Part shown: piece after piece, positions 37,356 to 64,000 of the stretch | Numbering within the stretch: the stretch's first letter is position 1 | Layout: every line of letters begins with the position of its first letter | Assembly (NCBI RefSeq): GCF_006345805.1 | Contig: NC_043023.1 | Location: forward strand, 7,936,001-8,000,000 | Direction of reading: 5' to 3' | Origin: Octopus sinensis | Taxonomy: Eukaryota | Length of the DNA: 64,000 nt | Translations under genes and position numbers: made by a program | The notes under the pieces: model-generated | What the model saw: the letters and a program-made list of their open reading frames with translations, nothing else | What the model was told of the DNA's origin: nothing | Databases searched by the model: none

Positions 37356-37408
37356 TATATATATAAAGAGCTATGTGTAATGACTGTATGACCCAAGGTA
37401 TTTGTAAT

Positions 37409-38930: not shown

Positions 38931-38934
38931 GTGC

Positions 38935-39748: not shown

Positions 39749-39749
39749 T

Positions 39750-40385: not shown

Positions 40386-40554
40386 TGAAGATTTGCTTTA
40401 AGGTTATATTAATAATCGTAATGGTGGTTTAAAATTTCGGCCCAGGGCGAGCGGGAGTCGATGACACGGGCCCCAGAATTTCCTGAAAGGGATGAACGGC
40501 AAAGTGAACCTCGGCTGTATTTAAACCCAAGACTTACTGTCGAGATCGACTCTG

Positions 40555-40960
40555 GGATCTTTTCGGTTTGAACGGCAGTTTTTAAAAACATTTTCCACGT
40601 AACTAAACACTTTTAAACTTCGTATACTTGTAGAATGTGTTTATAAAACATCTTTTTCTCTTGGCTTTCTTGAGAAAATTCTATAGTTTGTAAGATATTT
40701 GTTGTTTTTTTTTCTTCAATTTCTGCAATTTCAACCAATCAATGACGGTTATTGAGGTGAAAACATTCTGCCGTATGAATATGTCCCTCGTTTATAAACA
40801 TTGGGTTTATTTACATTTCTGAAGAAAAAGATACCCTTCCCCTCACCCCTAACCCTAAAAGAGATTGAAATGCAATAGATCGATACTTGGGTCATAATTA
40901 TAGGTGACAATTTCATATGACACCGCTAGAAAAAAACTGCCGTTCAAACCGAAAATATCC
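40555..40960. mobile_element. Merlin-like MITE (reverse orientation) in the gene B intron, flanked by a 29-bp duplication
   Basis: TIRs present; CCCAAGACTTACTGT(C/G)GAGATCGACTCTG at 40526-40554 and 40961-40989. Confidence 0.9.
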
Positions 40961-42175: not shown

Positions 42176-43330
42176 ATGACAAACTATTCTCTCAGAATGA
42201 ATAATTTAATAAAATCTAAAAATCCTGATACCAGAGAGAAACCATATTTCTGTGATGTCTGTGGAAAATCATTCTCTCGAAGAACTCACTTGACCATTCA
42301 CAGATGTATTCATAATGGTGAAAAGCCATATCAGTGTGATATCTGCGGTAATTCATTCTCTTGTAATAGTCAATTGACTAGTCATAAACGTATTCATACT
42401 GGAGAGAAGCCATATCAGTGTGATATTTGTGGTAAATCATTTTCTGAAAATTGCAATTTAACTGTTCATAAGCGTACACATACAGGAGAGAGGCCATATC
42501 ATTGTGATATCTGTGGCAAATCATTCACTGCAAACAGTCATTTTACTAAACACAAGCGCGTTCATACAGGAGAGAAACCCTATCGTTGTGATATTTGTGG
42601 AAAATTATTTTCTCGGAGAAGTCACGTGTCTGTTCACAAACGTACACATACAGGAGAGAAGCCATATCAGTGCAATACCTGTGGTAAATCATTCTCTTGT
42701 AATAGTCAGTTGACTACTCATAGACGTATTCATACTGGTGAAAAACCGTATCCCTGCGATTTATGTGATAAATCATTTTCTCAAATTAATGCTTTAACTA
42801 GACACAAACGTGTTCATAATGGTGAAAAGCCATATCATTGTGATATCTGTGGCAAATCATTCTCTGCAAACGGTAACTTGTCGATTCACAAACGCATTCA
42901 TACTGGGGAAAAACCATATCAGTGTGATATCTGTGGTAAATCATTTTCTGAAAATAGCACTTTCACTAAACACAAGCGTGTTCATACAGGAGAGAAACCA
43001 TATCGTTGTGATATCTGTGGCAAGTCTTTTTCTCTCAATAGCGCTTTCACTAGTCACAAATATATACATATGGGAGAGATGCCATATCATTGTAATACCT
43101 GTGGGAAATCTTTTTCTAAAAATAGCACTTTAACTAGTCACAGACGTATTCACACAGGTGAGAAACCATATCAGTGTGATATCTGTGGTAAATCATTTTC
43201 CGAAAGTGGCAGTGTAACTAGTCACAAGCGTATTCATACAGGAGAGAAGGCATATTATTGTAATATCTGTGGTATATCATTCTCTGCAAACAGTGACTTG
43301 ACTAAACACAAGCACATTCATACAGGATAG
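42176..43330 (+). CDS. C2H2 zinc-finger protein B, 13 fingers
   Basis: 13 C2H2 units; ATG at 42176 in the same context as A1; stops at a GAG>TAG change in a linker. Confidence 0.88.
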   Translation: MTNYSLRMNNLIKSKNPDTREKPYFCDVCGKSFSRRTHLTIHRCIHNGEKPYQCDICGNSFSCNSQLTSHKRIHTGEKPYQCDICGKSFSENCNLTVHKRTHTGERPYHCDICGKSFTANSHFTKHKRVHTGEKPYRCDICGKLFSRRSHVSVHKRTHTGEKPYQCNTCGKSFSCNSQLTTHRRIHTGEKPYPCDLCDKSFSQINALTRHKRVHNGEKPYHCDICGKSFSANGNLSIHKRIHTGEKPYQCDICGKSFSENSTFTKHKRVHTGEKPYRCDICGKSFSLNSAFTSHKYIHMGEMPYHCNTCGKSFSKNSTLTSHRRIHTGEKPYQCDICGKSFSESGSVTSHKRIHTGEKAYYCNICGISFSANSDLTKHKHIHTG

Positions 43331-43950
43331 ATCACTATGGCTTAACTAAACACAAGCGCGTTCACACAGGAGAGAAACCCTATCGTGTTATCTGTGGTAA
43401 ATCCTTCTCTTGTAATAGTCTATTGACTAATCATAAACGTATTCAGACTGGAGAGAAGCCATATCACTGTGATATTTCTGGTAAATCATTTTCTAAAAAT
43501 TACACTTTAACTAGTCACAAACGCATTCATACGGGTGAAAAACCATATCATTGCAATATCTGTGGTAAATCATTTTCTGAAAATAGCCACATGTCTAAAC
43601 ATAAACGTATTCATACAGGAGAGAAGCCATATCATTGTAATAGCTGTGGTAAATCATTTTCTGAAAACACCACTTTAACTATTCACAAATATACTCATAC
43701 AAGCGAGAAGCTATATCATTGTGACATCTGTGCTAAAACATTCTCTTGTAGTAGCCACTTGACTAAACACAAGCGTGTTCATACAGGAAAGGAATTATAT
43801 CCTTGAGATATCTGTGGTTAATCATTCTCTTATAATACTCACTTGACTAATCATAAACATATACATACTGAGGGGAAAAAACCACATCACTGTGATATCT
43901 GTGATGAATAATTCTTTCAAAATGGCCACTTCAGTACACGTGAGTATTCA
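43331..43950 (+). pseudogene. Out-of-frame and decayed continuation of the gene B finger array
   Basis: About 5 fingers in another frame, ending YP-TGA (TGT>TGA), then further broken fingers. Confidence 0.8.
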
Positions 43951-44124
43951 CGCACAACTGTAATTGTACCAGTATTGAAATTTATTACAACACGACAATA
44001 ATAACTTCTATTTTCCTCTGCTAAAAGGCGTTTTTTTTTATCACTTCAAATTTGATGTTATCAACTTCGAACTCATGAATATGAACCTGAATATGGAAAT
44101 ATATCAACACAACAAAGCCTTTGA

Positions 44125-45189
<1,065 letters not shown>

Positions 45190-45699
45190 ATCATTCTCAA
45201 AAGAATCCCACTTCAGTAGACATATGAGTATACACACACATGTGTGACTATATAGGTATTAAAATTTTTTACAACATGCCTAAAATTACTTCTAGTTTTT
45301 CTACAAAGAGACAGGGATTTTTTTTATCTCTTCAAATTTCATGTTATCAACTTCAATTTCATCAATGTCAACATCAAATTCAGCAAAGACTTTGATTTCT
45401 GAAGATGGTCATGCTGGAGTTTTGAGGAATTTGTTATTAGAGAATAAAGAAACGGGAATAATGAATAAAAACTGAATTAAACTGAAATGGGTTTTGGCTA
45501 TTAACTTTCATCATTGTCGTCATTTTCATCATCATCATCCTTCAGCGATAGCTTTTCTTTATATGCTGTCATGGGTGGGACAGTTTGACATGAGCTGGCA
45601 AGCCATAATGCTGCACCAGGTTCCACTCTGATTTGTTTTGGTTGCTTTGGATGTATTCTCCTAATATTAACCAGTTTACATTTTATGCTGTGTGCTTTA

Positions 45700-46075
45700 T
45701 ATCATCATCATCATCACTTAACATCCGCCTTCCAAGCTAGCATGGGTTGGACGATTTGACTTAGGACTGGTGAACGAAATGGCTGCACCAGGCTCCTTTC
45801 TGATCTGGCAGAGTTTCGACAGCTGGATGCTTTTCCTAACGCCAACCACCCCGAGAGTGTAGTGGGTGCTTTTATGTGTCACCGGCATGAGGAACAGTCA
45901 GGCAGTACTGGCAACGGCCACGCTCAAATGGTGTTTTTTACGTGCCACCTGCACAGGAAACAGTCCAGCAGCACTGGCAATGACCTCGCTCGAATAATTT
46001 TCACGTGCCATTGGCACAAGTGCCAGTAAGGCAGTGCTGGTAACGATCATGCTCAAATAGTGCTTTTTACCTGCC
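45700..46075 (-). mobile_element. RTE 3' UTR copy (paralog at ~62170-62560)
   Basis: (CAT)n tail and GTGCC subrepeats. Confidence 0.75.
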
Positions 46076-46413
46076 ACACAGCATATATATTTATAAAATT
46101 GAATAAGGGTAGAAATTGATATTAATCAATTAAAACCAGTGGCCTAGCATATTAAAAAAATCCAAAGATTAAAATATTTTTTACATTCAAAATTTAAAGG
46201 ACTGACCACTAAAAGTTAGTGGTCAGTCATTTGAGTTTTGTATGTAAAAAAAAAAATGTATATATATATATATATGTGGAAAGGCATCCAGCTGTAGAAA
46301 CTCTGCCAGATCAGACTGGAGCCTGGTGCAGGCAATTTAAAAACACAAAACAAACACCACCTCCTTTTCACTTCCCAATCTCTCTCTCTCTCATGACCTC
46401 ACTGTCCCTCCTC

Positions 46414-47036
46414 GGATCTTTTCCTTTTGAACGGCAGACAATTTCTAGTTCACTAAACACTTTAAAACTTCGTATACTGGTAGAATGTGTTTATAAAACA
46501 TCTTTTTCTCTTGGCTTTCTTGAGAAAACTGTAATTTGTTTGTTTAACGTAGTTTAATTTTTCAAATTTTAACCACTGAATCGCCTCTAATTGAGCTCAA
46601 ATTATTTGCTGCGTCTAAAACTGAGACAACATCCTGTCACTAATCCTAACCCTAAATTTTTATTGTTTTTAATTGTTAAATTAATTTAATTGTTATGCGT
46701 GTAAAAAAAAACGTCCATTGCCTTAGTTTTTTTTTACACGCGTAACAATTAAGAAAAAAAAAAATTAGGGTTAAGGTTAGGTTGAGGGTTAGTGACAGGA
46801 TGTTATCTCAGTTTTAGACGCAGCAAATGATTTTAGCTCAAAGGAGGTAATCGATTGGTTAAAATTGCCGAATTGCTCGAAATTTCAGACAAAATATCTT
46901 ACAAACTATAGAATTTTCTCAATAAAACCAAGAGAAAATGATGTTTTATAAACACATTCTACCAGTATACGAAGTTTAAAAGTGTTTAGTTAACTAGAAA
47001 TTGTGTTGACATCTGACATTCAAAAGGAAAAGATTC
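46414..47036. mobile_element. Merlin-like foldback MITE (paralog at 62885-63508)
   Basis: TIRs; exact 8-bp TSD CCCTCCTC at 46406-46413 and 47037-47044. Confidence 0.9.
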
Positions 47037-47069
47037 CCCTCCTCTTTTGCTCTGCTTCTCACTTGAGCT

Positions 47070-47135
47070 ATTGTCGCCCTTTTCAAGCCTAGCCAGGCTC
47101 ATGGAACCGGTTTCCCGGTTTCTGTGACGTATGTG
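47070..47135 (-). mobile_element. 3' part of a SINE S3, cut by a MITE end
   Basis: Reverse complement of the last ~65 bp of 7920-8227, ending CGTATGTG. Confidence 0.8.
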
Positions 47136-48363
47136 GAATCTTTTCCTTTTGAACGGCATTTCAGCAATTTTAACCAATCGATTACCTCCAATCAACTAAA
47201 ATCATTTGCTGCGACTAAAACTGGACTCTCGAAGGAAGGTGAGGCATGTTTTCACTGCACGGTTGCAGTAGTAAAAGAATGCATGTGGAGAACAAGAATG
47301 GAAGGAGTCGCGATAGGATCCTTTGTCTCGGGGCGCCGGCTTGCTCACTTACTTCAGATATCATCTGAAGAGCAAAATGGGGCTGGAAAAGAGGATCTTA
47401 CCACGGGGTGTGTATGAGAAAAGATGGAAGGAAGTGGAAAAAAAGGTGGGTGTCAGAAACCCAACTTAACTATGGAGGGAGGAGAGGAAACAAAAGCTGC
47501 GGGGCCTTATAAATTGCTGGGGTTTAAAACTTCGGTAAGATCGAAAGGTTATGAAATGTTATAAGATTCTATTGGTCACGTAAAGGACAATTTATAGACG
47601 AATTTTTTAATCCAAATGTTATGGAAAATTTTTAAATCGAACCTCTTAATTATTTGTTTTGCATGTATGTCATGTTTTTGTACTTCTATGTAACGATTGT
47701 ATAATCGTAATAAAGAAATTACTAACCTTAAACCTCCCCCCTATCCCTAACCCTAAATTTTTTCTCTTACTTGTTAAATTAATTTAATTCCATTGCTTTA
47801 GTTTTTTTTACACTCGTAACAATTAAATTAATTTAACAATTAAGAAAAAAAAAAATTGGGGGTTAGGGGGGAGGTTTAGGGTGAGTTACAGGATGTTGTC
47901 TCAGTTTTAGATACAGCAAATGATTTTAGCTCAAAAGGGAGCATAGGATTGGTTAAAATTCGAAAAATTAAACTACGTTAAACAAACAAATTACAATTTT
48001 GTTGAGAAAGTCAAGAGAAAAAGGCGTTCTATTTTGACGCATTCTACCAGTATACGAAGTTTTAAAGTGTTTAATTAACTAGAAATTGTGTTGAAAGATC
48101 AAAAGGAAAAGATCCATTTAGTGTTAGGGTTAGGATCAGTGACAGGATGTCTCAGTTTTAGACGCAGCAAATGATTTTAGCTAAATAGAAGCAATCGATT
48201 GATTAAAATTCGAAAAATTAAACTACGTTAAACAAACAAATTACAATTTTCTCAAGAAAGCCAAGAGAAAATAATGTTTTATTGTGACACATTCTACCAA
48301 TATACGAAGTTTTAAAGTGTTTAGTTAACTGTAAATTGTCTGCCGTTCAAAAGGAAAAGATCC
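47136..48363. mobile_element. Compound MITE cluster (right ends at ~48115 and 48363) containing an LTR-element-like insert at ~47223-47720
   Basis: GAATCTTTTCCTTTTGAACGGCA left end; two AAAAGGAAAAGATCC right ends; the insert is absent from the paralog at ~63680. Confidence 0.8.
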
Positions 48364-48840
48364 AATTTACGTGCTGGAAAAGGAGTAGACTTTATTAAAA
48401 TAATCTGGTGTAAATTTGGAAAAACTCGAAGGTAATTTATTGACAGAATGGGACAAAGAAAATCACTGGGGCGGAACCAACAAGTCAGCAGAGCCATCTA
48501 TTGGAGAATTAGAGAAATGCAATCATACGAAGGGAAGTAACTTCTACAACACAGTGAACCTCTCGATGTTACAGTAATTATTTTTCGACGCGGGAACCTG
48601 ACAATAATTAGGAAAATATATTTCTTCGTCTTAATTAATAACTTCCAAATTGAAATGTTGATTTGATGCTTATAAAATACTATGACCGACTGATACATGT
48701 GATAGAACTGAAATTAATTGGTAAAGTGAGAATAAAACAGCGTAATTAATTAGTAAAATGTGAGGAGTCCGATTGAAGAATTCCACATTAATATATGTTA
48801 TCCTGTTGTTTATGAGGCATTGATAAAACGGTAAGTTGGT
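48364..48840 (+). promoter_or_regulatory. Upstream block of gene A2 (first donor deleted; donor at 48831)
   Basis: Paralog of 30561-31180 with an internal deletion of ~150 bp. Confidence 0.55.
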
Positions 48841-49255
48841 AAAGATTTACTCTAATGTTATATTAATAATAGTAATGATGATGATGATTTCAAAAGTGGC
48901 CCAGGGTCAGCAATCTTTAATACGAGCGATAAGTCGATTGCATGGGTCCCGGTTTTTTCCCGAAAGAGATGAAAGACAAAGTCGATCTCATCCGTATTTG
49001 AACTCAGGACTTTCCGCCGAGGTTGACTTTGTATTTCATTCCATTCCGTGTGAAGAAAATAATAATGATGATGATGATAATAGTAATCTTTTGATAATTA
49101 AAACAATAACCTTTTGTGCTTTTGACCTGAAAATTGGCGGTAATAAAGAAATTACTTTATTACATGGACCCTAGTACTTGATTGCTTCTTATTTTTTCTA
49201 CCTGGAAATGATGAAAGGGGAACTTGATGTGATTTGAACTTTGAGAGTAATGATG

Positions 49256-49900
49256 CGATCTTTTCACTTTGACCGGCAGATTTTAAAAATAATTTCTATG
49301 TAACTAAAACATTTTAAACTTCGTATACAGGTAGAATGTGCTTAAAAGAACATTTTGTTCTCTTAGCTTTCTTGAGAAAATTCTGTAGTTTGTAACATAT
49401 TTGTTTAATTTCTTGCATTTCGGCAATTTCAACCAATTAATGACGTCTATTGAGGTGAAAACGATTTCTGGCGGCGTTATATGAAAATGTCCCTGTTACA
49501 TATTATATATTCGTTTAAGAAACAGATTGGGTTTATTTACATTTCTGAAGAAAAAAAGATACCCTTCCCCCAACCCTAAAACAGATTGAAATGCAATAGA
49601 TCAATACTAGGATCATATTTATGGGTGGACACTAAATAGGGAACGGTTTTGTTATCCAGCTCTGTTTACGAGTGACCCCTCAGTTTATGGCCACAGGGTA
49701 TCTTTTTTCTCATAAAAAACAGGGACATTTTAATATGACGCCGCCAGTATATGTTACGGCAGAAATCCTTTTCACCTCAATAGACGTCTTTGATTTGTTG
49801 AAATTGCCGAAATGCAAGAAATTAAACAACAAATATGTTACAAACAACAGAATTTTCTCAAGAAAGCCAAGAGAAAAAGATGTTTTATATACACATTCTA
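49256..49900. mobile_element. Intronic long-TIR MITE of A2, right end deleted
   Basis: Same insertion site (TAATGATG) as 31594; ~240 bp deleted, including the right terminus. Confidence 0.85.
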
Positions 49901-50432
49901 ATAAACTTGTGTGGGTATACCATTGTTTCAATGCCTCAATGAACTCTGACCCCTGTAAACATTGACATTAAATGGCTGACAGTGTTCATGTTGTAATATT
50001 TACAATGTTGAATTACTATGTCACTTAACTATCCTCTTTATCTTACTGCTTCTTTTTATATTTCAGAATATCACATCATGTTGACATGAAAGAAATTACT
50101 TCGTTCAGATGTGCCTTTGATATTTTTATCAACTAAAGGAAGATGATATATTTATAAGGAGCATTCATCTATACATCAACGTTTCTATATAAATATAATC
50201 TATGACAAACAACAGCAGAATATTTTTCTTGTCTGGAATGTAGAGGAGGTGATTGCTTTACATATTTGGATAACTTTACAAACGAGTTGACAGTTTTCAC
50301 CTGTTGATTTAGGTATTAAGTAAGATCAGAGATGAAAGAAAGATTAACATTGAATTATTCTCTAAAAAAAGTAATGCAAATGGACACAAACATATTCATA
50401 GAAAAGAAAAAAACAATATTATTGTGATATAT

Positions 50433-51665
50433 ATGACAAATTATCCTGCCATAATGAATAATTTAACTGAACCTAAAAACCCTGATACAAGAGAGAAACC
50501 ATATTTCTGTGATGTCTGTGGAAAATCATTCTCTCAAAGAACTTACTTGACTATTCACAAGCGTATTCATACAGGAGAGAAACCATATCATTGTGATATC
50601 TGTGGTAAATCATTCTCTGAAAATGGCAATTTAACTCAACATAAACGTATTCATACAGGAGAAAAGCCATATCATTGTGATATCTGTGGAAAATCATTCT
50701 TTCAAAGAACTCACTTGACTATTCACAAGCGTATTCATACAGGAGAGAAGCCATTTCATTGTAATATCTGTGGTGAATCATTTTCTCTAAATGACACTTT
50801 AACTAAACACAAACGTATTCATACCGGAGAAAAGCCATATCATTGTGATATCTGTGGTAAAACATTCTCTCAAAGTTATCACTTGACTAAACACCAGCGC
50901 GTTCACACAGGAGAGAAACCATATCATTGTGATATCTGTGGTAAATCATTTTCTTGTAATAGTCACTTGACTAGACATAAACGCATTCATACAGGAGAGA
51001 AACCTCATCATTGTGATATCTGTGGTGAATCATTCTCTGAAAATGGCAGTTTAACTAAACACATACGCATTCATACAGGAGAGAAGCCATATCATTGTGA
51101 TATCTGTGGCAAATCATTCATTGAAAGTGGTCAATTGAATAAGCACAAGCGTGTTCATACAGGAGAGAAACCATATCATTGTAAGATCTGTGGCAAATCA
51201 TTCATTGAAAGTGGTGACTTGAATAAGCACAAGCGTGTTAATACAGGAGAGAAACCATATCATTGTGATATCTGTGGTAAATCATTCTCTTGTAGTGGCC
51301 ACTTATCTGATCATAAACGCATTCATACAGGGGAAAAACCATATCATTGTGATATCTGTGGTAAATCATTCTCTCGTAATAGTCAATTGGTTAATCACAA
51401 ACGCATTCATACAGGAGAGAAGCCATTTCATTGTAAGATCTGTGGCAAATCATTCATTGAAAGTGGTCAATTGAATAAGCACAAGCGTGTTCATACAGGA
51501 GAGAAACCATATCATTGTGATATCTGTGGTAAATCATTCTCTCGTAGTGACCACTTGTCTGATCATAAACGCATTCATACAGGGGAAAAGCCATATCAGT
51601 GTGATGTCTGTGGTAAATCATTCTCTGAAAGTGGTGTCCTAACTAAACACCAGTGCAGGATATAA
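50433..51665 (+). CDS. C2H2 zinc-finger protein A2, 14 finger units (9th lacks its last His, 14th is truncated)
   Basis: Leader nearly identical to A1; tandem C2H2 units with TGEKP linkers. Confidence 0.9.
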
Positions 51666-52645
51666 ACCATATCATTGTGATATCTGTGGTAAATCATTCT
51701 CATACAATAGTGACTTGACTATTTATAAGCATATTCATACTGGGGAAAAACCATATCACTGTGATATCTATGGTCAATCATTCTCTCAAAAACGCCATTT
51801 ATGTACACATGTGAGTCTTGACACAAAAGTGCAACCATTCAGTATTAATCTTTATTACAACAATTATGGCTATTTTTTTCTGCTGAAAGACTGGGCTATT
51901 TTTATCTCTTCAAATATGATGTTATCGACTTCAATTTCAATAATGTCAGCATCAAATTCATGAATGTTATGTATATATATGGAAGTATATCAACAATGCC
52001 TTTGATTTCTGAAGATGATTGCTCTGGATTTTTGAGCAATTTGCTTTGAGAGAATAAAGAAATGGGAATAATGAATAAAAGGTTACACTGAAGTTGGTTT
52101 TGTCTATGTGTTTTCATCATTGTCGCTGTTATCATCATCATCCTTTAGTGAAATTTTTTTTTTTTACTGGCATGGGTGGCACAGTGTGACATGAGCTGGC
52201 AAACCATGATGCTGCACTAGGTTCCAGTCTGATTTGTTTGGGTTTCTTTGGGTGTATTCTCCTAATAGAGTTTATGCTTTGTGCTTCAAATATATGTGTG
52301 CGTATGCACACACACACACATATACATGTGTGTATGTGTATATATATATATATATATGTAAATATATCATCATCATCATCATCCAATGAAAAAAAAAATA
52401 TATTTACAATGATACCGAGGGGAAGGGGTTCCGCCACACTTTTACCAAGCAAAAATAAGGAGTTTGCTGCACATTGCGAGGTCAGGGTACTTGAGTTTTT
52501 TTGTTTGTCCTTATGAAAATCTTGTGGGTGAAAATATCAATATTTACCCGAAATTCTTCTGGACAAAAACTTCTCTGAAAAAAATTGTGACAACAAATTC
52601 GTATGTAATCGTAATCTAAACCATCTAAAAAGTATTATCATCGTA

Positions 52646-53502
52646 GGTGTGTATGAACAGCCATGCTACATGGCAGTGAAACATGGGCCGTGACTGCTGA
52701 GGATATGTGTAAGCTTGCATGAAATGAAGCCAGTATGCTCCGATGGATGTGTAATGTCAGTGTTCATACTCGACAGAGTGTAAGCACCTTAAGAGAAAAG
52801 CTGGACCTAAGAAGCATCAGATGTGGTGTGCAAGAGAGATGTCTGTGCAGGTATGGTCATGTGACGAGAATGGATGAAGATAGTTTTGTGAAAAAGTGCC
52901 ATACCCTAGCGGTTGAGGGAACCTGTGTAAGAGGCAGACCCAGGAAAACCTGGGACGAGGTGGTGAAGCACGACCTTCGAACTTTAGGTCTCACTGAGGA
53001 AATGACTAGAGACCGAGACCTTTGGAAGTGTGCTGTGCGTGAGAAGACCTGGCAGGAAAAGTGAGACCATAACCCGGGATGAGCCAGTCCACTTATACAT
53101 ACCTTTTCTTCAGGGGACACAAAACTCTACTTGTGAAGACCTGTTGAGGCAAGTGAGAATCGAAATCGATCAACATCAATGGAAATTGCAGCTGTGATAC
53201 CAGTGCCGGTGGCACGTAAGACAACCATCCGAACGTGGCAGTTGCGAGCACCGCCCCGACTGGCCTCGTGTCGGTGGCACGTAAAAAGCACCATCCGATC
53301 GTGGCCGTTTGCCAGCCTCATCTGCCACGTAAAAAGCACCCACTGCACTCACAGAGTAGTTGGCATTAGGAAGGGCATTCAGCCATAGAAACATTGCCAG
53401 ATCAGACTGGGCCTGGTGCAGCCTTCTGGCTTCCCAGACCCCAGTTGATCCGTCCAACCCATGCTAGCATGGAAAGTGGACTCTAAACGATGATGATGAT
53501 GA
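52646..53502 (+). mobile_element. 5'-truncated RTE-clade LINE (ORF end, 3' UTR and (ATG)n tail)
   Basis: LHGSETW...MLRWMCNVS...RYGHVTRM...RGRPRKTWDEVVKHDL...DRDLW; absent from the A1 paralogous site. Confidence 0.9.
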
Positions 53503-54036
53503 ATCTACCAAATCATCATCATCATTTAACGTCTGCTTTTCATGCTAGCATGGGTTGGACGATTTGACTGAGGTCTGGCAAACCAGACTCCAATCTGATA
53601 TGGCAGAGTTTTTACAGCTGGATGCCCTTCCTAACGCCAACCAGCTGTAGAAACTCTGCCAGATCAGATTGGAGTCTGGTTCGCCAGACCTCAGTCAAAT
53701 ATACATATGTATATATGTACAAATGATAAGAAGACAAAGAAAATTGTTTAACACATCGTGGCTGGGCAGTAAAAACAGTTCCTCTGGTACTGAAATTCGT
53801 GTGATGGGTGAAAAGTTATTTGACCAGCAACTTCGGAAAATGGGAGAAACTATTAAATAGATAACTTGACATTTGATCAGGAATTAAACAATAAAGATAT
53901 TTATGTTTGTGGTGGCGAAGTTGTGTGATCTGCAGTAGAGTAGACTAAATCGCCTCCCACCAAGCAGACCAACTTCGTGGCCTTAGAGTGAATAGGTAAG
54001 GGAAGAGAGATGCAAAAACAAAAAAAAAATGAGAAT

Positions 54037-54431
54037 TATATATATATATAAAGCTGAAGTTGTCTGTGTATGGCAGGTTTAGTAGCTTTCAACTAACATT
54101 ATCTCCTTCGAGACCCTTTGGCACAAGTTGACCAAAATTGAGAGTATGATAGAAGAAGGCTTGCTCTTCCTTCCGTAGAAGAAATAATTCAAATCGGACC
54201 ATGTTAACACCAAAAATTATTTACATCACAAAGGTGCTTTTTCTATGAAAATCCCTATTTTTTACGATTTTTTGACTGCTGTGACGTCATTTTTTGGTCT
54301 ATTTCAACAAGAAAAATGTTCAATTAAAGAGGATAACAAGCTACATAATGCAAAATTTTACTTTTCAAAAATTCCAATTCTAAAGGGTCGAAAAGAAAAC
54401 AAGCCCGAGCAACGCTGGGCTATACTGCTAG
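54037..54431 (+). mobile_element. Non-autonomous Helitron (paralog of 36958-37355)
   Basis: Hairpin GCCCGAGCAACGCTGGGC and CTAG|T end. Confidence 0.75.
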
Positions 54432-54577
54432 TATATATATAAAGGGCAATGTGTAAAGACTCCATTCATTAATGACCCTGGCATTGCATCTAGGGAGTTG
54501 ACCTCAAAGGCACAACTCCAGGCAAGGTTCTTTTCACGGAAGACCAGCTGTTGCCCATGCATACCAGTCTCCCCTCT

Positions 54578-55146
54578 CATCATCATCATCATTGTTCGAC
54601 CGTGGTCGAGACAATGGAATTTACCATGCTACGCCAGACTTCACGGTCCATCATGGCATTACGGAGGTCCTGTTGCTGGATGCCTGTATCCCTGGAGATT
54701 ACATCAGGGTAGGAGAGTGTGCGCCCTCTGATATTGTGAGTAGATGGCTTCCAGAGGAGAAGAGTAGAAACTGCCTCGTTTTCAGCTCTACAACAATGTC
54801 CAGCAAACTGGACTCCTACCTTTCACAAGAGATGACACAGGTGGTAGTTTCCTATATATTTGCATTTTGGTTGGATGACGCCTCCACGAGAGATTTTGAG
54901 CTCTCATGAGGAGGCGAGTGTAGGTTCCATCCAACCGCCTCTCAAGCTTCTTTGATAACATCCAGGTTTCTGAGCCATATAGTAGAATTGGTTCGACTGT
55001 GGCTTTGAAGATTTTAAGTTTGAAGTCTCTACTTAGATTTGATGACCAGATCTTATGCATGTCATTACAGGCTGACCAGGCCATACCCTTTCTAGATAGA
55101 AAGTCTTTTCCAGATGATGATATGTATGACCCAAGGTATTTGTAAT
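54578..55146 (-). mobile_element. 5'-truncated RTE-group LINE (second family) inserted in SINE S4
   Basis: YKYLGS...IFKATVEPILLYGSETW...RLDGTYTRLL; (ATG)n tail; 13-bp TSD CAGTCTCCCCTCT at 54565-54577 and 55147-55159. Confidence 0.9.
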
Positions 55147-55610
55147 CAGTCTCCCCTCTACAGGCCACCAATGTCATCCAAGTGAAGGCCAAAAGCTAAT
55201 GCAGCTTGGCACCAGTGATGTTGCAGCTCATTTCTAAAGGTGAGTGAACTGGACCACCATGAAATAAAGTGTCTTGCTCAAGAACACAACACACAGCCTG
55301 GTCCAGGAATCAAAATCACTACATGATTGTGAACCCAGCATTCTAACCACTGAGCTATGTGCATCTCTCTCTCTCTTTCTCTGTGTGTATACATACATAC
55401 ATATATATGAATGCATATACAGGAGGCAGTTGACAAAGCCAGCTTCTATATATGGCTGAAATGAGAAGACCCAGAATAGATTTTCCTATTTTTGATTCCA
55501 ATATTTATAGCTTGTACTTAACATTAAGGTTATTAATATAAATTACTTAATGAGTATAAGACTTTATTTAGATGTATATTAAATAAATAAATAAATTAAT
55601 TAATAATTTT

Positions 55611-56310
55611 GGCGCAGGAGTGGCTGTGTGGTAAGTAGCTTGTTAACTAACCACATGGTTCCGGGTTCAGGCCCACTGCGTGGCACCTTGGGAAAGTGTC
55701 TTCTGCTATAGCCTCGGACCGACCAAAGCCTTGTGAGTGGATTTGGTAGACGGAAACTGAAAGAAGCCTGTCGTATATGTGTATATATATATATATGCGT
55801 GTTTGTGTTTGTTCACCTAACATTGTTTGACAACTGGCAAAAGAGACCGATTTGACTGAGGACTGGTGAACGAAATGGATGCACCAGGCTCCTTTCTGAT
55901 ATGGCAGAGTTTCGACAGCTTGATGCCCTTCCTAATGCCAACCACTCCAAGAGTGTAGTGGGTCCTTATATATGTCACTGGCATGAAGACCTGTCAGGCA
56001 GTACTGGCAACGGCCATGCTGAAATGGTGTTTTTTATGTGGTACCAGCACTGGCAATGACCTCACTCGAATACTTTTTCACGTGCCAGTAAGGCAATGCT
56101 GGTAATGATAAAATGGTGCTTTTTACCTGCCACACAGCATATATATATATATATATGGAAGGGCATTGGCGTTAGGAAGAGCACACTGCTGTAGAAACTC
56201 TGCCAGATCAGACTGGAGCCTGGTGCAGCCTTCTGGCTTCCCAGATCCTGGTCGAACCGTCCAACATATGCTAGCATGGAAAACGGACGTTAAATGATGA
56301 TGATGATGAC
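55611..56310. mobile_element. SINE S1 5' part followed by RTE 3'-UTR fragments in both orientations
   Basis: GGCGCAGGAGTGGCTG head at 55611; RTE tail ending (ATG)n at ~56308. Confidence 0.75.
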
Positions 56311-56361
56311 ATATATATATATACACACACATGTAAATTTATGTGTGTGTATGTATGCATA

Positions 56362-56535
56362 TCTAATACTATAAATGCGAATGTGTCCCACTTTTTCAAC
56401 TTTACTCTTAGAGGCCGTAGCCCAACATATCATACCATTTTGGAATCAGGCTCAATCTGTGGGTAAATTAAGAACTTTCCAGGGCGAATCTGTACCTATA
56501 AGCCTGAAATTTTGGATTCCCAAGTTAACATTACG
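56362..56535 (+). mobile_element. Probable Helitron 5' end truncated by a MITE
   Basis: A|TCTAATACTATAAATGCGAATGTG is typical of Helitron 5' termini. Confidence 0.5.
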
Positions 56536-56928
56536 GATCTTTTCGGTTTGACCGGCAGTTGTTTATAGCAGTGTCATATGAAATTGTCACCCATAATTAT
56601 GACCCTAGTATCGATCTATTGTATTTCAATCTGTTTTAGGATTAGGGTGAGGAGAAGGGTATCTTTTTTTCTTCAGAAATGTAAATAAACTCAATCTGTT
56701 TCTTAAACGAGGGACATATTCATACGGCACAGAATGTTTTTACCTTAATAGACGTCATTGATTGGTAGAAATTGAAGAAAAAAACCAACAAATATCTTAC
56801 AAACTATAGAATATTCTCAAGAAAGCCAAGAGAAAAAAAATTTTTATCTTGACACATTCTACCAGTATACGAAGTTTAAAAGTATTTAATTAACTAGAAA
56901 TTGTCTGCCGTTCAAAAGGAAAAGATCC
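56536..56928. mobile_element. Merlin-like MITE with ends from two different subtypes
   Basis: Left GGATCTTTTCGGTTTGACCGG, right GTCTGCCGTTCAAAAGGAAAAGATCC; no local TSD. Confidence 0.85.
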
Positions 56929-57160
56929 CTATGTGTGCCCCCCAACTGGACGGGACGCCAGTCCATCGCAGCATTACTCAAGAAACAGGAAAAGGGAGTG
57001 AGAGAAAGTTGTGTCGAAAGAGTACAACAGGGGTCGTCACCACCCATGCCAGAACTTCCTGGAGCTACTAGGTGTTTTTGATCAATAAACACACACAACG
57101 CCCAGTCTGGGAATCGAAACCGTGAGTCTGCTGCCCTAACCACTGGGCCATTGCGCCTCC
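56929..57160 (-). mobile_element. 5' part of a SINE S3, beginning at a MITE end
   Basis: CTATGTGTGCCCCCCAACTGG...GGCCATTGCGCCTCC is the reverse complement of 7921-8168. Confidence 0.85.
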
Positions 57161-57334
57161 ATACCTCCTCTGCTTAACACTTTTTATTTCTACCTCTGCT
57201 CTCAAGTGTAGAGAAGTAACAGAAACATGCACAGCTATTTGCAGAGAGGGAGACAAGACAGACATATATATAGGGGTAGAGTTTACGAAAAAAACAAAAG
57301 ACAAAGACACGTGGTGTACAAAAACAAACAGATG

Positions 57335-58059
57335 GGATCTTTTCCTTTTGAACGGCAGTTTTCAGCACAATTCCTAGTTAACTAAACACTTTTAAAGTTC
57401 GTATACTGGTAGAATGTCTTTATAAAACATCATTTTTTCTTGGCTTTATTGAGACAATTCTATATGTTGTAACATATTTCCACTTTAAAATCGAGCATTT
57501 CGGCAATTTTAACCAATCAAATACGTCCATTTGGAGTCAAAACATACCGTGCTGTATGAATATGTCCTCGTTTAAGAAACAGATTGGGTTTATTTACATT
57601 TGCGAAGAAAAAAAGATACCTTTACCCCCACCCCTAACCCTAAGTAAACCTGACCCTAAGATAGATTGAAATGCAATAGATCGATACTAGGGCCATAATA
57701 ATGGGTGACTATTTCAAACGACACCGCTAGAAATAAATCCCATTTTTATTTTGACACATTCTACCAGTACACGAAGTTTAAAACTGTTTAATTAACTAGA
57801 AATTGTGTTGAAAACTGCCGTTCAAAGGGTAAAGATCCATTTAGGGTTAGGGTTAGGATCAGTGACAGGATGTCTCAGTTTTAGAAGCAATCGATTGATT
57901 AAAATTCGAAAAATTAAACTATGTTAAACTTACAAATTACAATTTTCTCAAGAAAGGCAAGAGAAAAAGTTGTTTTATTTTGACACATTCTACCAGTATA
58001 CGAAGTTTAAAAGTGTTTAGTTAACTAGAAATTGTCTGCCGTTCAAAAGGAAAAGATCC
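57335..58059. mobile_element. Compound MITE cluster upstream of A3
   Basis: Left TIR at 57335; right TIRs at 57838 and 58059; ~57745-58059 parallels ~48030-48363. Confidence 0.8.
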
Positions 58060-58595
58060 AATTTATGTGCTGAAAAAGGAGTAGACATTATTAAAATAAT
58101 CTGGTTTAAATTTGGAAAAACTCGATGGTAATTTATTGACAGAATGAGAGAAAGAAAATCACTGGAGCGGAAAAAGGAGTAGACATTATCAAAATAATCT
58201 GGTGAATGGGACAAAGAAAATCACTGGAGCGGAACCAACAAGTTAGCAGAGCCATCTCTAGGAAAATTAAAGAAATACAATCATACGAAGGGAAGTAACT
58301 TCTACAAGATAGTGAACCACTCAATGTTACAGTAATTATTTTTCGAAGCGGGAACCTGACAATAATTAGGAAAATATATTTCTTCGTCTTAATTAATAAC
58401 TTTGAAACTGAAATGTTGATTTGATGCTTATAAAATACTATGACCGACTGATACATGTGATAGAGCTGAAATTAATTAGTAAAGTGAGAATAAAACAGCG
58501 TAATTAATTAGTAAAATGTGAGGAGTCCGATTGAAGAATTCCACATTAATATATGTTATCCTGTTGTTTATGAGGCATTGATAAAACGGTAAGTT
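58060..58595 (+). promoter_or_regulatory. Upstream block of gene A3 (first donor deleted; donor at 58589)
   Basis: Paralog of 48364-48840 with a small internal duplication. Confidence 0.55.
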
Positions 58596-59000
58596 GATAA
58601 AGATTTACTCTAATGTTATATTAATAATAGTAATGATGATGATGATTTCAAAACTGGCCCAGGGTCAGCAATCTTTAATATGAGCGATAAGTCGATTGCA
58701 TGGGTCCCGGTTTTTTCCCGAAAGAGATGAAAGACAAAGTCGATCTCATCCGTATTGGAACTCAGGACTTTCCGCCGAGGTTGGCTTTGTATTTCATTCC
58801 ATTCCGTGTGAAGAAAATAATAATGATAATAGTAATCTTTTGATAATTAAAACAATAACCTTTTGTGCTTTTGACCTGAAAATTGGCGGTAAGGCATAAG
58901 TGAATTACATGGACCCTAGTACTTGATTGCTTCTTATTTTTTCTACCTGGAAATGATGAAAGGGGACCTTGATGTGATTTGAACTTTGAGAGTAATGATG

Positions 59001-59735
59001 CGATCTTTTCACTTTGACCGGCAGATTTTAAAAATAATTTCTATGTAACTAAAACATTTTAAACTTCGTATACTGGTAGAATGTGCTTTAAAAAAATGGT
59101 TTTCTCTTAGCTTTCTTGAGAAAATTCTGCATTTTGTAACATATTTGTTTAATTTCTTGCATTTCGGCAATTTCAACCAATTAATGACGTCTATTGATGT
59201 GAAAACGATTTCTGCCGTAACATTTTCTGGCGGCATTATATGAAAATATCCCTGTTACATATTATATATTCGTTTAAGAAACAGATTGGGTTTATTTATA
59301 TTTCTGAAGAAAAAAAGATACCCTTCCCCCAACCCTAAAACAGATTGAAATGCAATAGATCGATACTAGGATCATAATTATGGGTGGACACTAAATAGGG
59401 AACGGTTTTGTTATCCAGCTCTGTTTACGAGTGACCCCTCAGTTTATGACCACGGGGTATCTTTTTTCTCATAAAAAACAGGGACATTTTCATATGACGC
59501 CGCCAGTATATGTTACAGCAGAAATCGTTTTCACCTCAATAGACGTCTTTGATTAGTTGAAATTGCCGAAATGCAAGAAATTAAACAACAAATATGTTAC
59601 AAAGTACAGAATTTTCTCGATAAAACCAAGAGAAAAAGATGTTTTATAAACACATTCTACCAGTATACGAAGTTTAAAATTTTTTAGTTACATAGAAATT
59701 ATTAAAAAAATCTGCCGGTCCAAGCGAAAAGATCC
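59001..59735. mobile_element. Intronic long-TIR MITE of A3
   Basis: Both TIRs; TSD TAATGATG. Confidence 0.9.
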
Positions 59736-60430
59736 TAATGATGTGCAGGGCACTGACCATGGGCTCATCGTAGACAACATGAAGACAGGGACCTTCACTG
59801 CTGGATAGCTAGCAAGCTGGTCCAGAAAAGGGAATTCCAGTTGGCAACATGAAGTCTTAAATCAAACATTTTTCTGAAAGGTAAAGGTGAAGTGTGTAGT
59901 AAACTTGTGTGGGTATACCAATGTTTCAACACCTCAATGAACTCTGACCCCTGTAAACATTGACATTAAATGGCCGACAGTGTTCATGTTGTAATATTTA
60001 CAATGTTGAATTACTATGTCACTTAACTATCCTCTTTATCTTACTGTTTCTTTTTATATTTCAGAATATCACATCATGTTGACATGAAAGAAATTACTTC
60101 ATTCAGATGTGCCTTTGATATTTCTATCAACTAAAGGAAGATGATATATTTATAAGGAGCATTCATCTATACATCAACGTTTCTATATAAATATAATCTA
60201 TGACAAACAACAGCAGAATATTTTTCTTGTCTGGAATGTAGAGGAGGTGATTGCTTTACAAGTTTGGATAACTTTACAAATGAGTTGACAGTTTTCACCT
60301 GTTGATTTAGGTATTAAGTAAGATCACAGAAGAAAGAAAGATTTACATTAAATTATTCTCTAAAAAAAGTAATGCAAATGGACACAAACATATTCATAGA
60401 AAAGAAAAAAACAATATTATTGTGATATAT

Positions 60431-61261
60431 ATGACAAATTATCCTGTCATAATGAATAATTTAACTGAACCTAAAAACCCTGATACAAGAGAGAAACCAT
60501 ATTTCTGTGATGTCTGTGAAAAATCATTCTCTCGAAGAAATCACTTGACTATTCACAAGTGTATTAATACAGGAGAAATGCCATATCATTGTAATATCTG
60601 TGGTGAATCATTTTCTCTAAATAGCACTTTAACTCGACATAATCGTGTTCATACAGGAGAAAAGCCATTTCATTGTGGTATCTGTGGTAAAACATTCTCT
60701 CAAAGTAATGGCTTAACTAAACACAGGCGCGTTCACACTGGAGAGAAACCATATCATTGTGATATCTGTGGTAAATCATTCTCTTGTAGTAGCCACTTGT
60801 CTGATCATAAATGCATTCATACAGGGGAAAAACCATATCATTGTGATATCTGTGGTAAAGCATTCTCTGAAAATGGCACTTTAACTAAACACAAACGCAT
60901 TCATACAGGAGAGAAGCCATATCATTGTAAGATCTGTGGCAAATCATTCATTGAAAGTGGTAACTTGAATAAGCACAAGCGTGTTCATACAGGAGAGAAA
61001 CCATATCATTGTGATATCTGTGGTGAATCATTTTCTCAAAATAGCCACCTGTCTAAACATAAACGTATTCATACAGGAGAGAAACCTCATCATTGTGATA
61101 TCTGTGGTAAATCATTTTCTGAAAATAGCACTTTAACTAGTCACAAATATACTCATACAAGCGAGAAGCCATATTGTGACATCTGTGCTAAAACATTCTC
61201 TTGTAGTAGCCACTTGACTAAACACAAGCGCGTTCATAGAGGAGAGGAATTATATCCTTGA
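60431..61261 (+). CDS. C2H2 zinc-finger protein A3, 9 finger units; A-type 5' end and B-type 3' end
   Basis: A-type leader and fingers, then NSHLSKH, KYTHTSEK and CAKTFSCSSHLTKH..ELYP* shared with 43560-43806. Confidence 0.88.
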   Translation: MTNYPVIMNNLTEPKNPDTREKPYFCDVCEKSFSRRNHLTIHKCINTGEMPYHCNICGESFSLNSTLTRHNRVHTGEKPFHCGICGKTFSQSNGLTKHRRVHTGEKPYHCDICGKSFSCSSHLSDHKCIHTGEKPYHCDICGKAFSENGTLTKHKRIHTGEKPYHCKICGKSFIESGNLNKHKRVHTGEKPYHCDICGESFSQNSHLSKHKRIHTGEKPHHCDICGKSFSENSTLTSHKYTHTSEKPYCDICAKTFSCSSHLTKHKRVHRGEELYP

Positions 61262-64000
61262 GATATCTGTGGTTAATCATTCTCTTATAATACTCACTTG
61301 ACTAATCATAAACATATTTGTACTGGGGGGAAAAATTCACATCACTGTGATATCTGTGATGAATAATTCTTTCAAAATGGCTACTTCAGTACACATGTGA
61401 GTATTCACACACAACTGTAGCTGTACCAGTATTGAAATTAATTACAACACGACAACAATAACTTCTATTTTTCTCTGCTAAAAGGCGTTTTTTTTTATCT
61501 CTTCAAATTTGATGTTATCAACTTCAAACTCATGAATATGAACCTGAATGCCATGTATATATGGAAATATATCAACACAACAAAGCCTTTGAGGTGTCTT
61601 CACAAGACACCAGCGTATTTATTCAGGGGAGAAGCCATATCAGTGTGATATCTGTGGTACATCATTCTCAAAACAATCTCACTTCAGTACACGTTTGTGT
61701 ATACACACTCAAGTGTGACTATATAAGTTTTAAAATTTGTTACAACATACCTAAAATTACTTCTAGTTTTTCTGCAAAGAGACAGGGATTTTTTTTATCT
61801 CTTCAAATTTCATGGTATAAACTTCAATTTCATCAATGTCAACATCAAATTCAGCAAAGACTTTGATTTCTGAAGATGGTCATGCTGGAGTTTTGTCGAA
61901 TTTGTTATGATAGAATAAAGAAATGGGAATAATGAATAAAAACTGAATTAAACTGAAATTGGTTTTGTCTATTAACTTTCATCATTGTCGTCATTTTCAT
62001 CATCATCATCCTTCAGCGATAGCTTTTCTTTATATGCTGTGATGGGGGGACAGTTTGACATGAGCTGGCAAGCCCTAATGCTGCACTAGGTTCCAGTCTG
62101 ATTTGTTTTGGTTGCTTTGGATGTATTCTCCTAATATTAACCAGTTTACATTTTATGCTGTGTGCTTTATATCATCATCATCATCATCATTTAACATCCG
62201 CCTTCCAAGCTAGCATGGGTTGGACGAGTTGGACGATTTGACTGAGGACTGGTGAATGAAATGGCTGCACCAGGCTCCTTTCTGATCTGGCAGAGTTTGG
62301 ACAGCTTGATGCCCTTCCTAATGCCAACCACTCCAAGAGTGTAGTGGGTCCTTATACATGTCACTGGCATGAGGACTTGTCAGGCTGTACTGGCAACGGC
62401 CACGCTCAAATGGTGATTTTTACGTGCCACCTGCACAGGAAACAGTCCAGCAGCACTGGCAATGACCTCTCTCGAATACTTTTTCACGTGCCATCGGCAT
62501 ATGTGCCAGTAAGACAGTGCTGGTAACGATCATGCTCAAATGGTGCTTTTTACCTGCCACACAGCATATATATATATTTATAAAATTTAATAAGGGTAGA
62601 AATTGATATTAATCAATTAAAACCAATTCATATTAAAAAATCCAAAGATTAAAATATTTTTTACATACAAAATTTAAAGGACTGACCACTAAAAGTTAGT
62701 GGTCAGTCATTTGAGTTTTGTAGGTAAAAAATATATATATATATATATGTGGAAGGGCATCCAGCTGTAGAAACTCTGCCAGATCAGACTGGAGCCTGGT
62801 GCAGGCAATTTAAAAACACAAACCAAACACCACCTTCCTTTCACTTCCCACTCTCTCTCTCTCATGACCTCACTGTCCCTCCTCGGATCTTTTCCTTTTG
62901 AACGGCAGACAATTTCTAGTTAACTAAACACTTTAAAACTTCATATACTGGTAGAATGTGTCAAAATAAAACATTTTTTTCTCTTGGCTTTCTTGAGAAA
63001 ACTGTAATTTGTTTGTTTAACGTAGTTTAATTTTTCGAATTTTAACCACTGAATCGCCTCTAATTGAGCTAAAATCATTTGCTGCGTCTAAAACTGAGAC
63101 AACATCCTGTCACTAATCCTAACCCTCAATTTTTATTGTTTTTAATTGTTAAATTAATTTAATTGTTACGCATGTAAAAAAAAACATCCATTGCTTTAGT
63201 TTTTTTTTAGATGCGTAACAATTAATAAAAAAAAAATTAGGGTTAAGGTTAGGTTGAGGGTTAGTGACAGGATGTTATCTCAGTTTTAGACGCAGCAAAT
63301 GATTTTAGCTCAAAGGAGGTAATCGATTGGTTAAAATTGCCGAATTGCTCGAAATTTCAGACGAAATATCTTACAAACTATAGAATTTTCTCAATAAAAC
63401 CAAGAGAAAATGTTGTTTTATAAACACATTCGACCAGTATACGAAGTTTAAAAGTGTTTAGTTAACTAGAAATTGTGTTGACATCTGGCGTTCAAAAGGA
63501 AAAGATTCCCCATCTCTTTTGCTCTGCTTCTCACTTGAGCTATTGTCGCCCTTTTCAAGTCTAGCCAGGCTCATGGAACCGGTTTCTGTGACGTATGTGG
63601 AATATTTTCCTTTTGAACGGCATTTCAGCAATTTTAACCAATTGATTACCTCCAATCAACTAAAATCATTTGCTGTGACTAAAAGTGAGACAACATCCTG
63701 TCACTAACCTTAAACCTCCCCCCTATCCCTAACCCTAAATTTTTTCTCTTACTTGTTAAATTAATTTAATTCCATTGCTTTAGTTTTTTTTACACTCGTA
63801 ACAATGAAGAAAAAAAAAATTTAGGGTTAGGGGGGAGGTTTAGGGTGAGTTACAGGATGTTGTCTAAGTTTTAGATGCAGCAAATGATTTTAGCTCAAAA
63901 GAGAGCATAGGATTGGTTAAAATTCGAAAAATTAAACTACGTTAAACAAACAAATTACAATTTTGTCGAGAAAGTCAAGAGAAAAAGGCGTTCTATTTTG
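61030..64000 (+). repeat. Segmental duplicate of ~43570-48036 (lacking the 168-bp array and the LTR-like insert)
   Basis: Collinear UTR, RTE, hairpin, MITE and SINE junctions; the last 20 bases match ~48017-48036. Confidence 0.9.

Follow-up and report, generated by a model that had tools for sequence, protein, structure and literature searches.

A zinc-finger gene between the halves of a split SINE in Octopus sinensis: a candidate product of unequal exchanges between MITEs in a tandem array

The window analyzed in this work, a stretch of 64,000 nucleotides of the Octopus sinensis genome, contains a cluster of zinc-finger (ZNF) genes interspersed with MITEs (Table 1). One of these genes, A2, lies within a block of 9,793 bp enclosed by the two parts of a SINE. 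Its fingers are tandem C2H2 units joined by TGEKP linkers (PF00096, E 6.8e-76; PF13465, E 1.6e-122), as in poly-C2H2 genes, and the block also includes the poly(A) site reported for it in the initial annotation (AATAAA at 52053 and 52074). The claim that a whole ZNF gene resides in the block holds only as far as the coding exon is concerned: missing from A2 are ~240 bp of intron, a loss private to this copy, and 145 bp that A3 likewise lacks and that contain the first of the two candidate splice donors of A1 and B1. Further downstream, D2 carries two RTE-like inserts absent from D1. An exact look-up matched none of four proteins, the Atlas matches were generic ZNFs and a homologue search with residues 1-60 returned mostly unrelated ZNFs. 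Among 120 returned proteins, the three best identities (60-61%) and all four carriers of the HCDICG motif belong to Octopus, and the protein sequence tentatively hints at an octopod source.

Table 1. Position and main characteristics of the features discussed in the text.
Feature	Position	Strand	Description
Gene-free tandem duplication	2742..4855	+	MITE end (4209) at junction
SINE, intact copy	7920..8225	-	reference for both halves
First array unit	30561..47135	+	A1, D1, MITE 39350, B1, C, W1, SINE 3' part; 16,575 bp
Neighbouring L-type MITE	46414..47036	.	perfect 8-bp TSD
SINE 3' part, tRNA-head-like	47070..47135	-	ends in left target copy CGTATGTG (47128-47135)
Left MITE	47136..48115	.	long (L) type, reverse orientation; TIR begins GAATC; ~140 bp deleted directly after TIR
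Insert in left MITE	47224..47716	.	~495 bp; missing from copy at 63600
Right remnant of outer L-type MITE	48116..48363	.	10-bp-deletion end; joined to A upstream block
A2 upstream block	48364..50432	+	candidate donor 48831, acceptor near 50067
A2 ORF	50433..51665	+	intact, 410 aa, C2H2 array, 12 canonical fingers, Pfam zf-C2H2
3' UTR and downstream block D2	51666..55847	+	95-98% identical to D1 (35.4-37.9 kb)
W' patch	55848..56168	+	paralogue of target's own left flank (45752-46290, 62234-62760)
Right MITE, chimera	56535..56928	.	short (S) type to 56809, L type with 10-bp-deletion end from 56850
SINE 5' part	56929..57161	-	starts with right target copy C-TATGTG
MITE nest before A3	57335..58059	.	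right 315 bp common with nest before A2
Gene A3	58060..61667	+	5' part A-type, 3' part B1-type; crossover in ZNF exon ~60985-61030
Second copy of W, SINE 3' part and left MITE	61591..64000	+	SINE ~63542-63599; MITE from 63600

That a single SINE has been cut in two around the ZNF gene, as initially proposed, is confirmed by our analysis: the halves are complementary and each abuts a MITE end. Aligned to the only intact copy within the window, they are collinear with it and overlap exactly at the target. The left part (47066-47135) shows 62 identities over 74 columns and ends in TATGTG, with which the right part begins again at 56930 (82% identity for 56930-57161). On the left, CGTATGTG ends at 47135 and the TIR follows directly; on the right, C-TATGTG starts at 56929, directly past the TIR. 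The two halves do share one 8-bp target sequence, the right copy (56929-56935) being one base short, and the outer TIRs of two elements are bracketed by one TSD pair, as in a compound transposon. With a match defined as 7/8, or seven with one deletion, 0.14% of 200,000 random 8-mer pairs match by chance and ~0.5 matches are expected over the 357 left/right flank pairs examined; the weight of the evidence therefore rests on the continuity of the SINE and not on the 8-mer. The SINE head was called tRNA-like by eye from box A/B-like motifs, and ARAGORN reported no tRNA gene. The suspicion that the halves stem from different SINE copies, listed at the outset as a refutation, is likely correct in a weak sense only: one original insertion, now represented by two tandem copies.

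A TSD of 8 bp was correctly given as typical of this MITE family, since it is seen at 46414 (8/8), 31594 (8/8), 23817 (7/8) and 4432 (7/8). The hAT and P elements produce 8-bp TSDs as well. The terminal 5'-GG, the TIR of ~24 bp and the 8-9-bp TSD liken the family to non-autonomous Merlin elements (PMC8101967), from which it differs in that no transposase was found in the window (none of the 13 ORFs of at least 120 aa encodes one, and no autonomous element is seen). The MITEs bounding the block lack a local TSD, as had been noted, but this is ordinary: nine of the 13 independent two-ended MITEs in the window lack a 7-8/8 match, and four retain it. Similarly, the right TIR had been described as of the same subtype as the left one, but this end is also common to the TIRs at 48363 and 58059. 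The two outer ends of the block match both ends (the GAATC end and the 10-bp-deletion end) of the neighbouring element at 46414-47036. The centre and right end of the left MITE resemble the 23817 element, and the signal that makes it a candidate hybrid consists of one TIR base and a tract in which the reference element carries a private rearrangement. As far as 56809, 21 diagnostic bases assign the right MITE to the S type, and from 56850 on 9/9 columns assign it to the L type, which places the switch point at 56810-56849. It is thus a chimeric element without a TSD of its own at the junction, as expected from NAHR, and two further S-to-L chimeras occur in the window, among them that at 464-896. 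MITE remnants are 91-94% identical, and end identities among L-type copies range from 91 to 93%.

Between D2 and the right MITE, the W' patch entered at a 4-bp microhomology (55848) and is 95% and 90% identical to the two W copies, whereas seven further matches of the family, each at least 85 bp long, give 77-87%. The segment 56330-56534 was rejected as a continuation of block W or X1 (p 0.92, 0.35), as were the 8-mers left of 57335 and 56535 as partners of the A-upstream target, the flanks beyond them being non-homologous (shuffle p 0.78, 0.94).

The whole arrangement is part of a tandem array. Alignment of 48364-64000 on 30417-48363 yields 27 pieces, of which 19 are forward and pass the reference twice, the remainder being seven interspersed repeats and one paralogous match of 39 bp; the low-copy blocks of 48.4-64 kb run in order, twice, through the unit at 30.6-48.4 kb. 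The duplicated units are hence direct and collinear, as in NAHR. The left junction itself recurs 16,464 bp downstream (~63542-63600) within a 2.1-kb duplicate (93%), and the junction of the outer MITE remnant with the A upstream block recurs at 57839-58059. The closest 5' relative of A2 is A3, which begins 1.1 kb beyond the right junction in the same orientation, shares the nest junction with it and, like A2, carries a B1-like tract. Duplicates differ by 3-7% and bear private insertions. Dating by identity failed, given that paralogous blocks are uniformly 94-98% alike and that the A 5' sites conflict, the three groupings being supported by 9, 4 and 2 of them.

We regard it as somewhat more probable than an even chance that one MITE entered the SINE and that two separate unequal exchanges between MITEs of the tandem array split its halves between units. 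The gene A2 has likely never moved, being one unit of a local head-to-tail ZNF array. A single L-type MITE would have inserted in the SINE, creating the 8-bp duplication, and would then have undergone recombination with a MITE that lay in the same orientation upstream of an A gene, giving rise to the left junction as the boundary of a ~16.5-kb unit, of which the repeat is at hand. The chimera observed on the right may reflect recombination, in another unit, of an S-type MITE with the right end of the unit's own SINE-MITE, an exchange that would have removed the SINE 3' part and formed the right junction. A crossover between A and B inside the ZNF exon, where A3 is chimeric, would have generated the next unit. 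MITEs would serve in this process as homology for misaligned recombination, and transposase would be unneeded past the initial insertion. We favour the two exchanges because the left junction is repeated, the right MITE is chimeric and a patch of flanking sequence (W') lies inside the block; because the outer ends match both ends of a single neighbour; because A3 has both the nest junction and the 145-bp loss of A2; and because other exchanges are apparent in the window (the A3/B chimera, the B1-like tract, 464-896 and the gene-free duplication). The interpretation in the initial annotation is therefore supported in part: successive unequal crossovers between MITEs, its third option, provide the best fit. 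Its headline, gene mobilization to a single target site, finds no support, as the source is adjacent and in the same orientation, and is further opposed by the repeated left junction, the recombinant right MITE and the flank sequence in the supposed cargo. Movement to an unlinked site is not indicated by anything in the window.

Several observations nonetheless count against two exchanges. At 30561 the site of A1 is empty, whereas a TIR is found there in A2 and A3 (48363/58059), and the first copy at 2742 has no MITE opposite the MITE end at 4209. The element that NAHR predicts at the breakpoint of the first copy is hence missing at 30561, and the model must therefore assume a later or polymorphic insertion. 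Moreover, the left MITE is no more than a candidate hybrid, its signal consisting of the TIR base and rearranged tract described above, the chimera on the right may predate the event, given the two further S-to-L chimeras, and an intact SINE-MITE-SINE unit is missing from the window. The A2/A3 split should predate that of W1/W3, yet A2/A3 (2058/2134 identical) are no more diverged than W1/W3 (1824/1910, p 0.15); this is ascribed to conversion, because MITE remnants give 91-94%. Finally, two events with opposite loss are required, as opposed to one for gap filling.

In this latter process, which we consider rather unlikely, a break in the MITE of the SINE would be repaired in one step by copying ~9 kb from the neighbouring unit, with entry at one MITE and return at another, leading to a giant Pack-TIR-like structure in one target site. 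A single event would account for both junctions and for the matched outer ends, with a source within 2 kb. The locus resembles the single-copy Pack-TIRs of PMC8277862, in which a copy of nearby DNA is enclosed by TIR ends and one TSD pair. Of these, 57% lie at most 15 kb from their source, a distance within which A3 falls here, and in 91 of 97 the corresponding outgroup site holds a plain element. Their median captured size, however, is 224 bp (PMC8277862), ~40 times below the 9,793 bp and full coding exon found here. Also unlike in Pack-TIRs, the switch points are located within other MITE copies, and the left junction occurs a second time. The array already displays many ordinary exchanges, and the end product of gap filling would be indistinguishable in this window from that of the two exchanges.

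We consider it unlikely that a transposase inserted two MITE ends, the left of one copy and the right of another, jointly into the SINE, whether through the ~1-kb hop of a compound transposon or, in the course of replication, through a reversed-ends composite insertion. Both junctions are precise TIR ends sharing one 8-mer, and the overlap of L-type end identities (91-93%) with the age of the duplication suggests that the family may have been active. Breakpoints lie exactly at termini with an empty first copy (48363/58059 versus 30561, 4209 versus 2742), and the lack of an element at the first copy is given in PMC3744419 as the mark of reversed-ends transposition and not of recombination. The likeness to maize Ac/Ds events extends to the 8-bp TSD, the size of ~10-20 kb and the internal microhomology junction, here the 4-bp junction at 55848 (PMC3744419, PMC4270019), and composite insertions of 14-24 kb with terminal ends are described in PMC4270019. 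As opposed to the maize cases, the right element here is a subfamily chimera, and neither a facing-end donor nor a transposase is seen in the window. For such an insertion, the right element must have been a chimera beforehand and the left one must independently bear the GAATC variant of a neighbour 100 bp away; no transposase ORF was found among those listed above. At the gene-free duplication, the 4209 end differs from its sister at 4855 in 4/23 bases, against 16/365 elsewhere (p 0.024, for a window chosen after seeing the data), which may favour recombination. In a broader version of the idea, Merlin-like MITE ends would drive alternative transposition, with paired neighbouring ends inserting nearby during replication. 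We deem this distinctly unlikely, and hold similar doubts that such a process built, in an octopod genome, the tandem duplications and a composite insertion of 9.8 kb that includes a ZNF gene. Its candidate junctions would be the SINE site, the A promoter site at 30561 and the gene-free site at 2742 and, if true, it would mean that ZNF clusters can grow by the action of a transposase. At the gene-free duplication, two MITEs (3799, 4855) are enclosed by a single TSD pair.

Very unlikely, in our view, is a circle formed by recombination of two MITEs flanking an A gene and reintegrated by one crossover into the MITE of the SINE. Such a circle yields chimeric MITEs without local TSDs and a bracketing 8-mer, and one base near the right end is common with the inner nest element. 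Many MITE copies could nevertheless have acted as landing sites, yet the closest relative lies ~1 kb away in the same orientation, and a single crossover demands the same switch point in both MITEs, whereas the left switch, if real, falls near the other end of the element.

Alu-mediated NAHR duplications are known, and the mechanism proposed here is a textbook one if the two exchanges hold. NAHR between transposon copies is the prevailing model for tandem duplications (PMC3744419), and the array shares with such cases the direct head-to-tail units, the chimeric element at the junction and the loss of its own TSD. It differs in its substrates (400-660-bp MITEs in an invertebrate ZNF cluster), in a first unit without an element at the breakpoint and in the TSD pair that the two exchanges would have left on either side of a gene. 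Transposition is not proven by a TSD pair that brackets a member of a tandem gene array. As in coleoid C2H2 clusters, poly-C2H2 genes are clustered here; the accounts of those clusters deal, in the portions available, with numbers, clusters and expression and describe no breakpoints (PMC9068888, PMC12513265). According to a 2026 review, breakpoints of rearranged blocks in coleoid cephalopods are yet to be analyzed (PMC12988792), and TE-TE ectopic recombination has been raised as a possible cause of gene-family growth, though not shown for ZNFs in the available part of that source (PMC10547256). Our literature search, which left most subscription papers aside, returned no breakpoint study of cephalopod ZNFs, an absence that is thus unproven, and only a plant review on gene duplication through MITE-NAHR. 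The window supplies base-level junctions in a ZNF cluster, with several unit boundaries in or at MITEs and one in a ZNF exon, and these make it easy to ask genome-wide whether ZNF duplication breakpoints are enriched in chimeric MITEs. The link drawn initially to the cephalopod ZNF expansion concerns one cluster, which also grew by a MITE-free crossover in the ZNF exon.

A coincidence, in which unrelated SINE copies were cut at a preferred MITE target, or an assembly error with mis-joined haplotypes appears extremely improbable. The halves overlap exactly at the target, collinear with the intact copy, and the duplicates carry their 3-7% differences and private insertions, a divergence exceeding usual allelic difference. 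On the other side, no contig or read in the examined public runs bridges the arrangement. Four such runs were aligned to 46300-57800, a raw-read run giving 117 reads, and none of the 24 pieces shown (118-365 aligned bases each) spans either junction. Contigs of three runs join 47129-47135 to 56930-56940, as expected of intact SINE copies elsewhere; they were rejected as an empty allele, since their short side of at most 35 bases is indistinguishable from other SINE copies. No RNA run with part of 52300-57340 appears among the 24 listed public runs, 20 of which contain part of this segment, and the ~495-bp insert of the left MITE, single-copy in the window, occurs in many contigs of public runs.

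The split SINE described in the initial annotation is real: both halves align to the one intact copy in the window, their alignments overlap at TATGTG, and a MITE terminus adjoins each half. The target copies at the split (CGTATGTG on the left, C-TATGTG on the right) require one deletion to match. The target site duplication (TSD) of the family is 8 bp, as judged by matches of 7-8/8 in 4 of the 13 independent two-ended MITEs, a count that leaves out the duplicates at 59001 and 62885. Such an 8-mer match occurs in 0.14% of random pairs, and about 0.5 would be expected among the 357 flank pairs tested; hence it is mainly SINE continuity, rather than the 8-mer, that supports descent of both junctions from one insertion.

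The ~9.8 kb between the halves holds an intact C2H2 ORF of 410 aa (gene A2), and the best three identities among 120 proteins returned are to Octopus proteins. The suggestion that a whole gene lies here is borne out for the coding exon only, since A2 lacks 145 bp, present in its neighbors A1 and B1, that bear the first candidate donor. Upstream, 48556-48645 is 96% (A2) and 92% (A3) like B1, as opposed to ~75-79% elsewhere, and appears to be a conversion tract adjoining this loss.

Features of the split SINE, the ZNF array and other repeats in the window
Feature	Position	Strand	Length	Remarks
Intact SINE copy	7920-8225	-		head presumably tRNA-like (from motifs)
SINE 3' part	47066-47135			aligns with intact copy
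SINE 5' part	56930-57161			aligns with intact copy
Left MITE	47136-48115
Right MITE	56535-56928
First array unit	30561-47135	+	16,575 bp	order A1, D1 (block downstream of A1), MITE, B1, C, W1, SINE 3' part
MITE	40555-40960 (region 40526-40989)			flanking direct repeat ~29 bp, not 8 bp
Headless ZNF fragment	44123-45196			168-bp two-finger unit x ~6, 96-98%; copy at 61591 has <1 unit
Insert in left MITE	47224-47716		~495 bp	takes the place of ~16 bp; TATA-like and AATAAA motifs; once in window, many contigs in public runs
Non-LTR retrotransposon 3' fragments	52650-53500; 54461-55123			in D2 (downstream of A2), not in D1; presumably RTE-like (from motifs)
Tandem array	18353-22320			period ~97 bp, neighbors 93-97% alike
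Tandem array	10205-13040			period ~149 bp, neighbors 93-97% alike

A2 belongs to a tandem array: all four ZNF ORFs from 30.6 kb to the window end lie on the + strand. When 48364-64000 was mapped on 30417-48363, 19 of the 27 pieces kept were forward and traversed the reference twice, the others being interspersed repeats (7) and a short paralogous match (1). The left junction and the low-copy block W preceding it recur 16,464 bp on (45131-47223 vs 61591-63687, 93%). The next gene, A3, is A-type up to ~61.0 kb and B1-type thereafter (619/655), a switch that would be a crossover within the ZNF exon, with no MITE involved. Because A2 and A3 share a MITE-nest junction and the 145-bp loss, the site being empty in A1, the closest 5' relative of the block is A3, which begins 1.1 kb from its right end. 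TSD-less MITE ends lie directly before B1, A2 and A3 (39748, 48363 and 58059) at nearly the same homologous upstream spot, which is empty of MITE in A1 (30561); the one before B1 is an independent S-type (short subfamily) insertion.

The right MITE is itself a chimera, S-type at 21 diagnostic bases up to 56809 and L-type (long subfamily) at 9/9 columns from 56850, with a 10-column run at 56784 that is a gap in common with the 39350 element. Five ends share a 10-bp deletion (46414, 48363, 56928, 58059 and 62885), and the right end of this element is one of them. The left MITE, a possible hybrid, has a TIR starting GAATC, as do 47036 and 63508, a center resembling the 23817 element and a right end common to the nest before A3. 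Next to it, an element with a perfect TSD (46414-47036) has as its two ends the two outer end types of the 9.8-kb block, and one such element in the SINE, split later, would explain both. The facing ends at 47036 and 47136, 100 bp apart and both with the GAATC variant, may have come to match through a local hop or through conversion between the inverted repeats. The MITE shows the TIR and TSD features of Merlin (PMC8101967) and is a putative member.

On balance, we favor successive unequal exchanges between MITEs within the array, one of three routes initially proposed, over a compound transposon or a circle. The ancestor would have had a single MITE in the SINE; the left junction would be an array-unit boundary, and the right junction would have arisen by its own exchange in a different unit. 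We infer both the order of events and recombination itself; the junction repeat, collinearity, right chimera, A/B chimera and W' patch are directly supported. This last patch (55848-56168) is paralogous to block W, itself 0.8-1.4 kb to the left of the left junction; over 152-153 bp the patch is 95% identical to W3 and 90% to W1, and it has the same microsatellite junction. It directly precedes the right MITE and SINE 5' part, the place expected for W in an intact unit; alternatively, it could be a later conversion patch, since over a 70-bp tract it sides with W3 rather than W1. Gap filling in one step (PMC8277862), which we deem unlikely, would yield an end product identical to that of unequal exchanges. 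Transposase-made insertion (PMC4270019, PMC3744419) is compatible with the precise ends, size, 4-bp internal junction and empty first copies, but the chimera must pre-exist and the TIR variant be chance, and we regard it as improbable. Reintegration of a circle, whose landing site must adjoin its own source, seems very unlikely. Every serious option is a local event, and the locus offers no evidence for the gene mobilization originally put forward. Among the pieces listed from contigs of three public runs and raw reads of one, which cover the blocks, none bridges either junction, and hence neither an empty nor a single-MITE allele was seen there.

A gene-free tandem duplication (2742-4855) serves as internal control. 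Its junction is a MITE right end (4209), joined without microhomology. Local duplication can apparently produce a TSD pair around two MITEs, since here the 8 bp to the left of the first MITE are identical (8/8) to those on the right of the second. The 4209 end differs from its sister at 4/23 bases, against 16/365 elsewhere (p 0.024, post hoc), which leans towards recombination. The first copy at 2742, like A1, has no MITE, and such first copies are the main evidence against unequal exchange, being regarded in PMC3744419 as the mark of reversed-ends transposition. Recombination with a polymorphic MITE could account for this duplication, as could alternative transposition.

Known mechanisms already include TE-mediated unequal recombination, Pack-TIR gap filling and alternative transposition, and coleoid C2H2 clusters have been described (PMC9068888 and PMC12513265). 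Our literature search, in a collection lacking most subscription papers, found no study of such breakpoints in coleoids, and a 2026 review presents coleoid breakpoints as yet to be analyzed (PMC12988792). Overall, the locus provides a genuine and useful breakpoint example, one whose kind is already known. Away from the ZNF cluster, a nested MITE at 464-1109, which switches from S-type to L-type and contains an internal right TIR at 896, appears to be another recombinant element.
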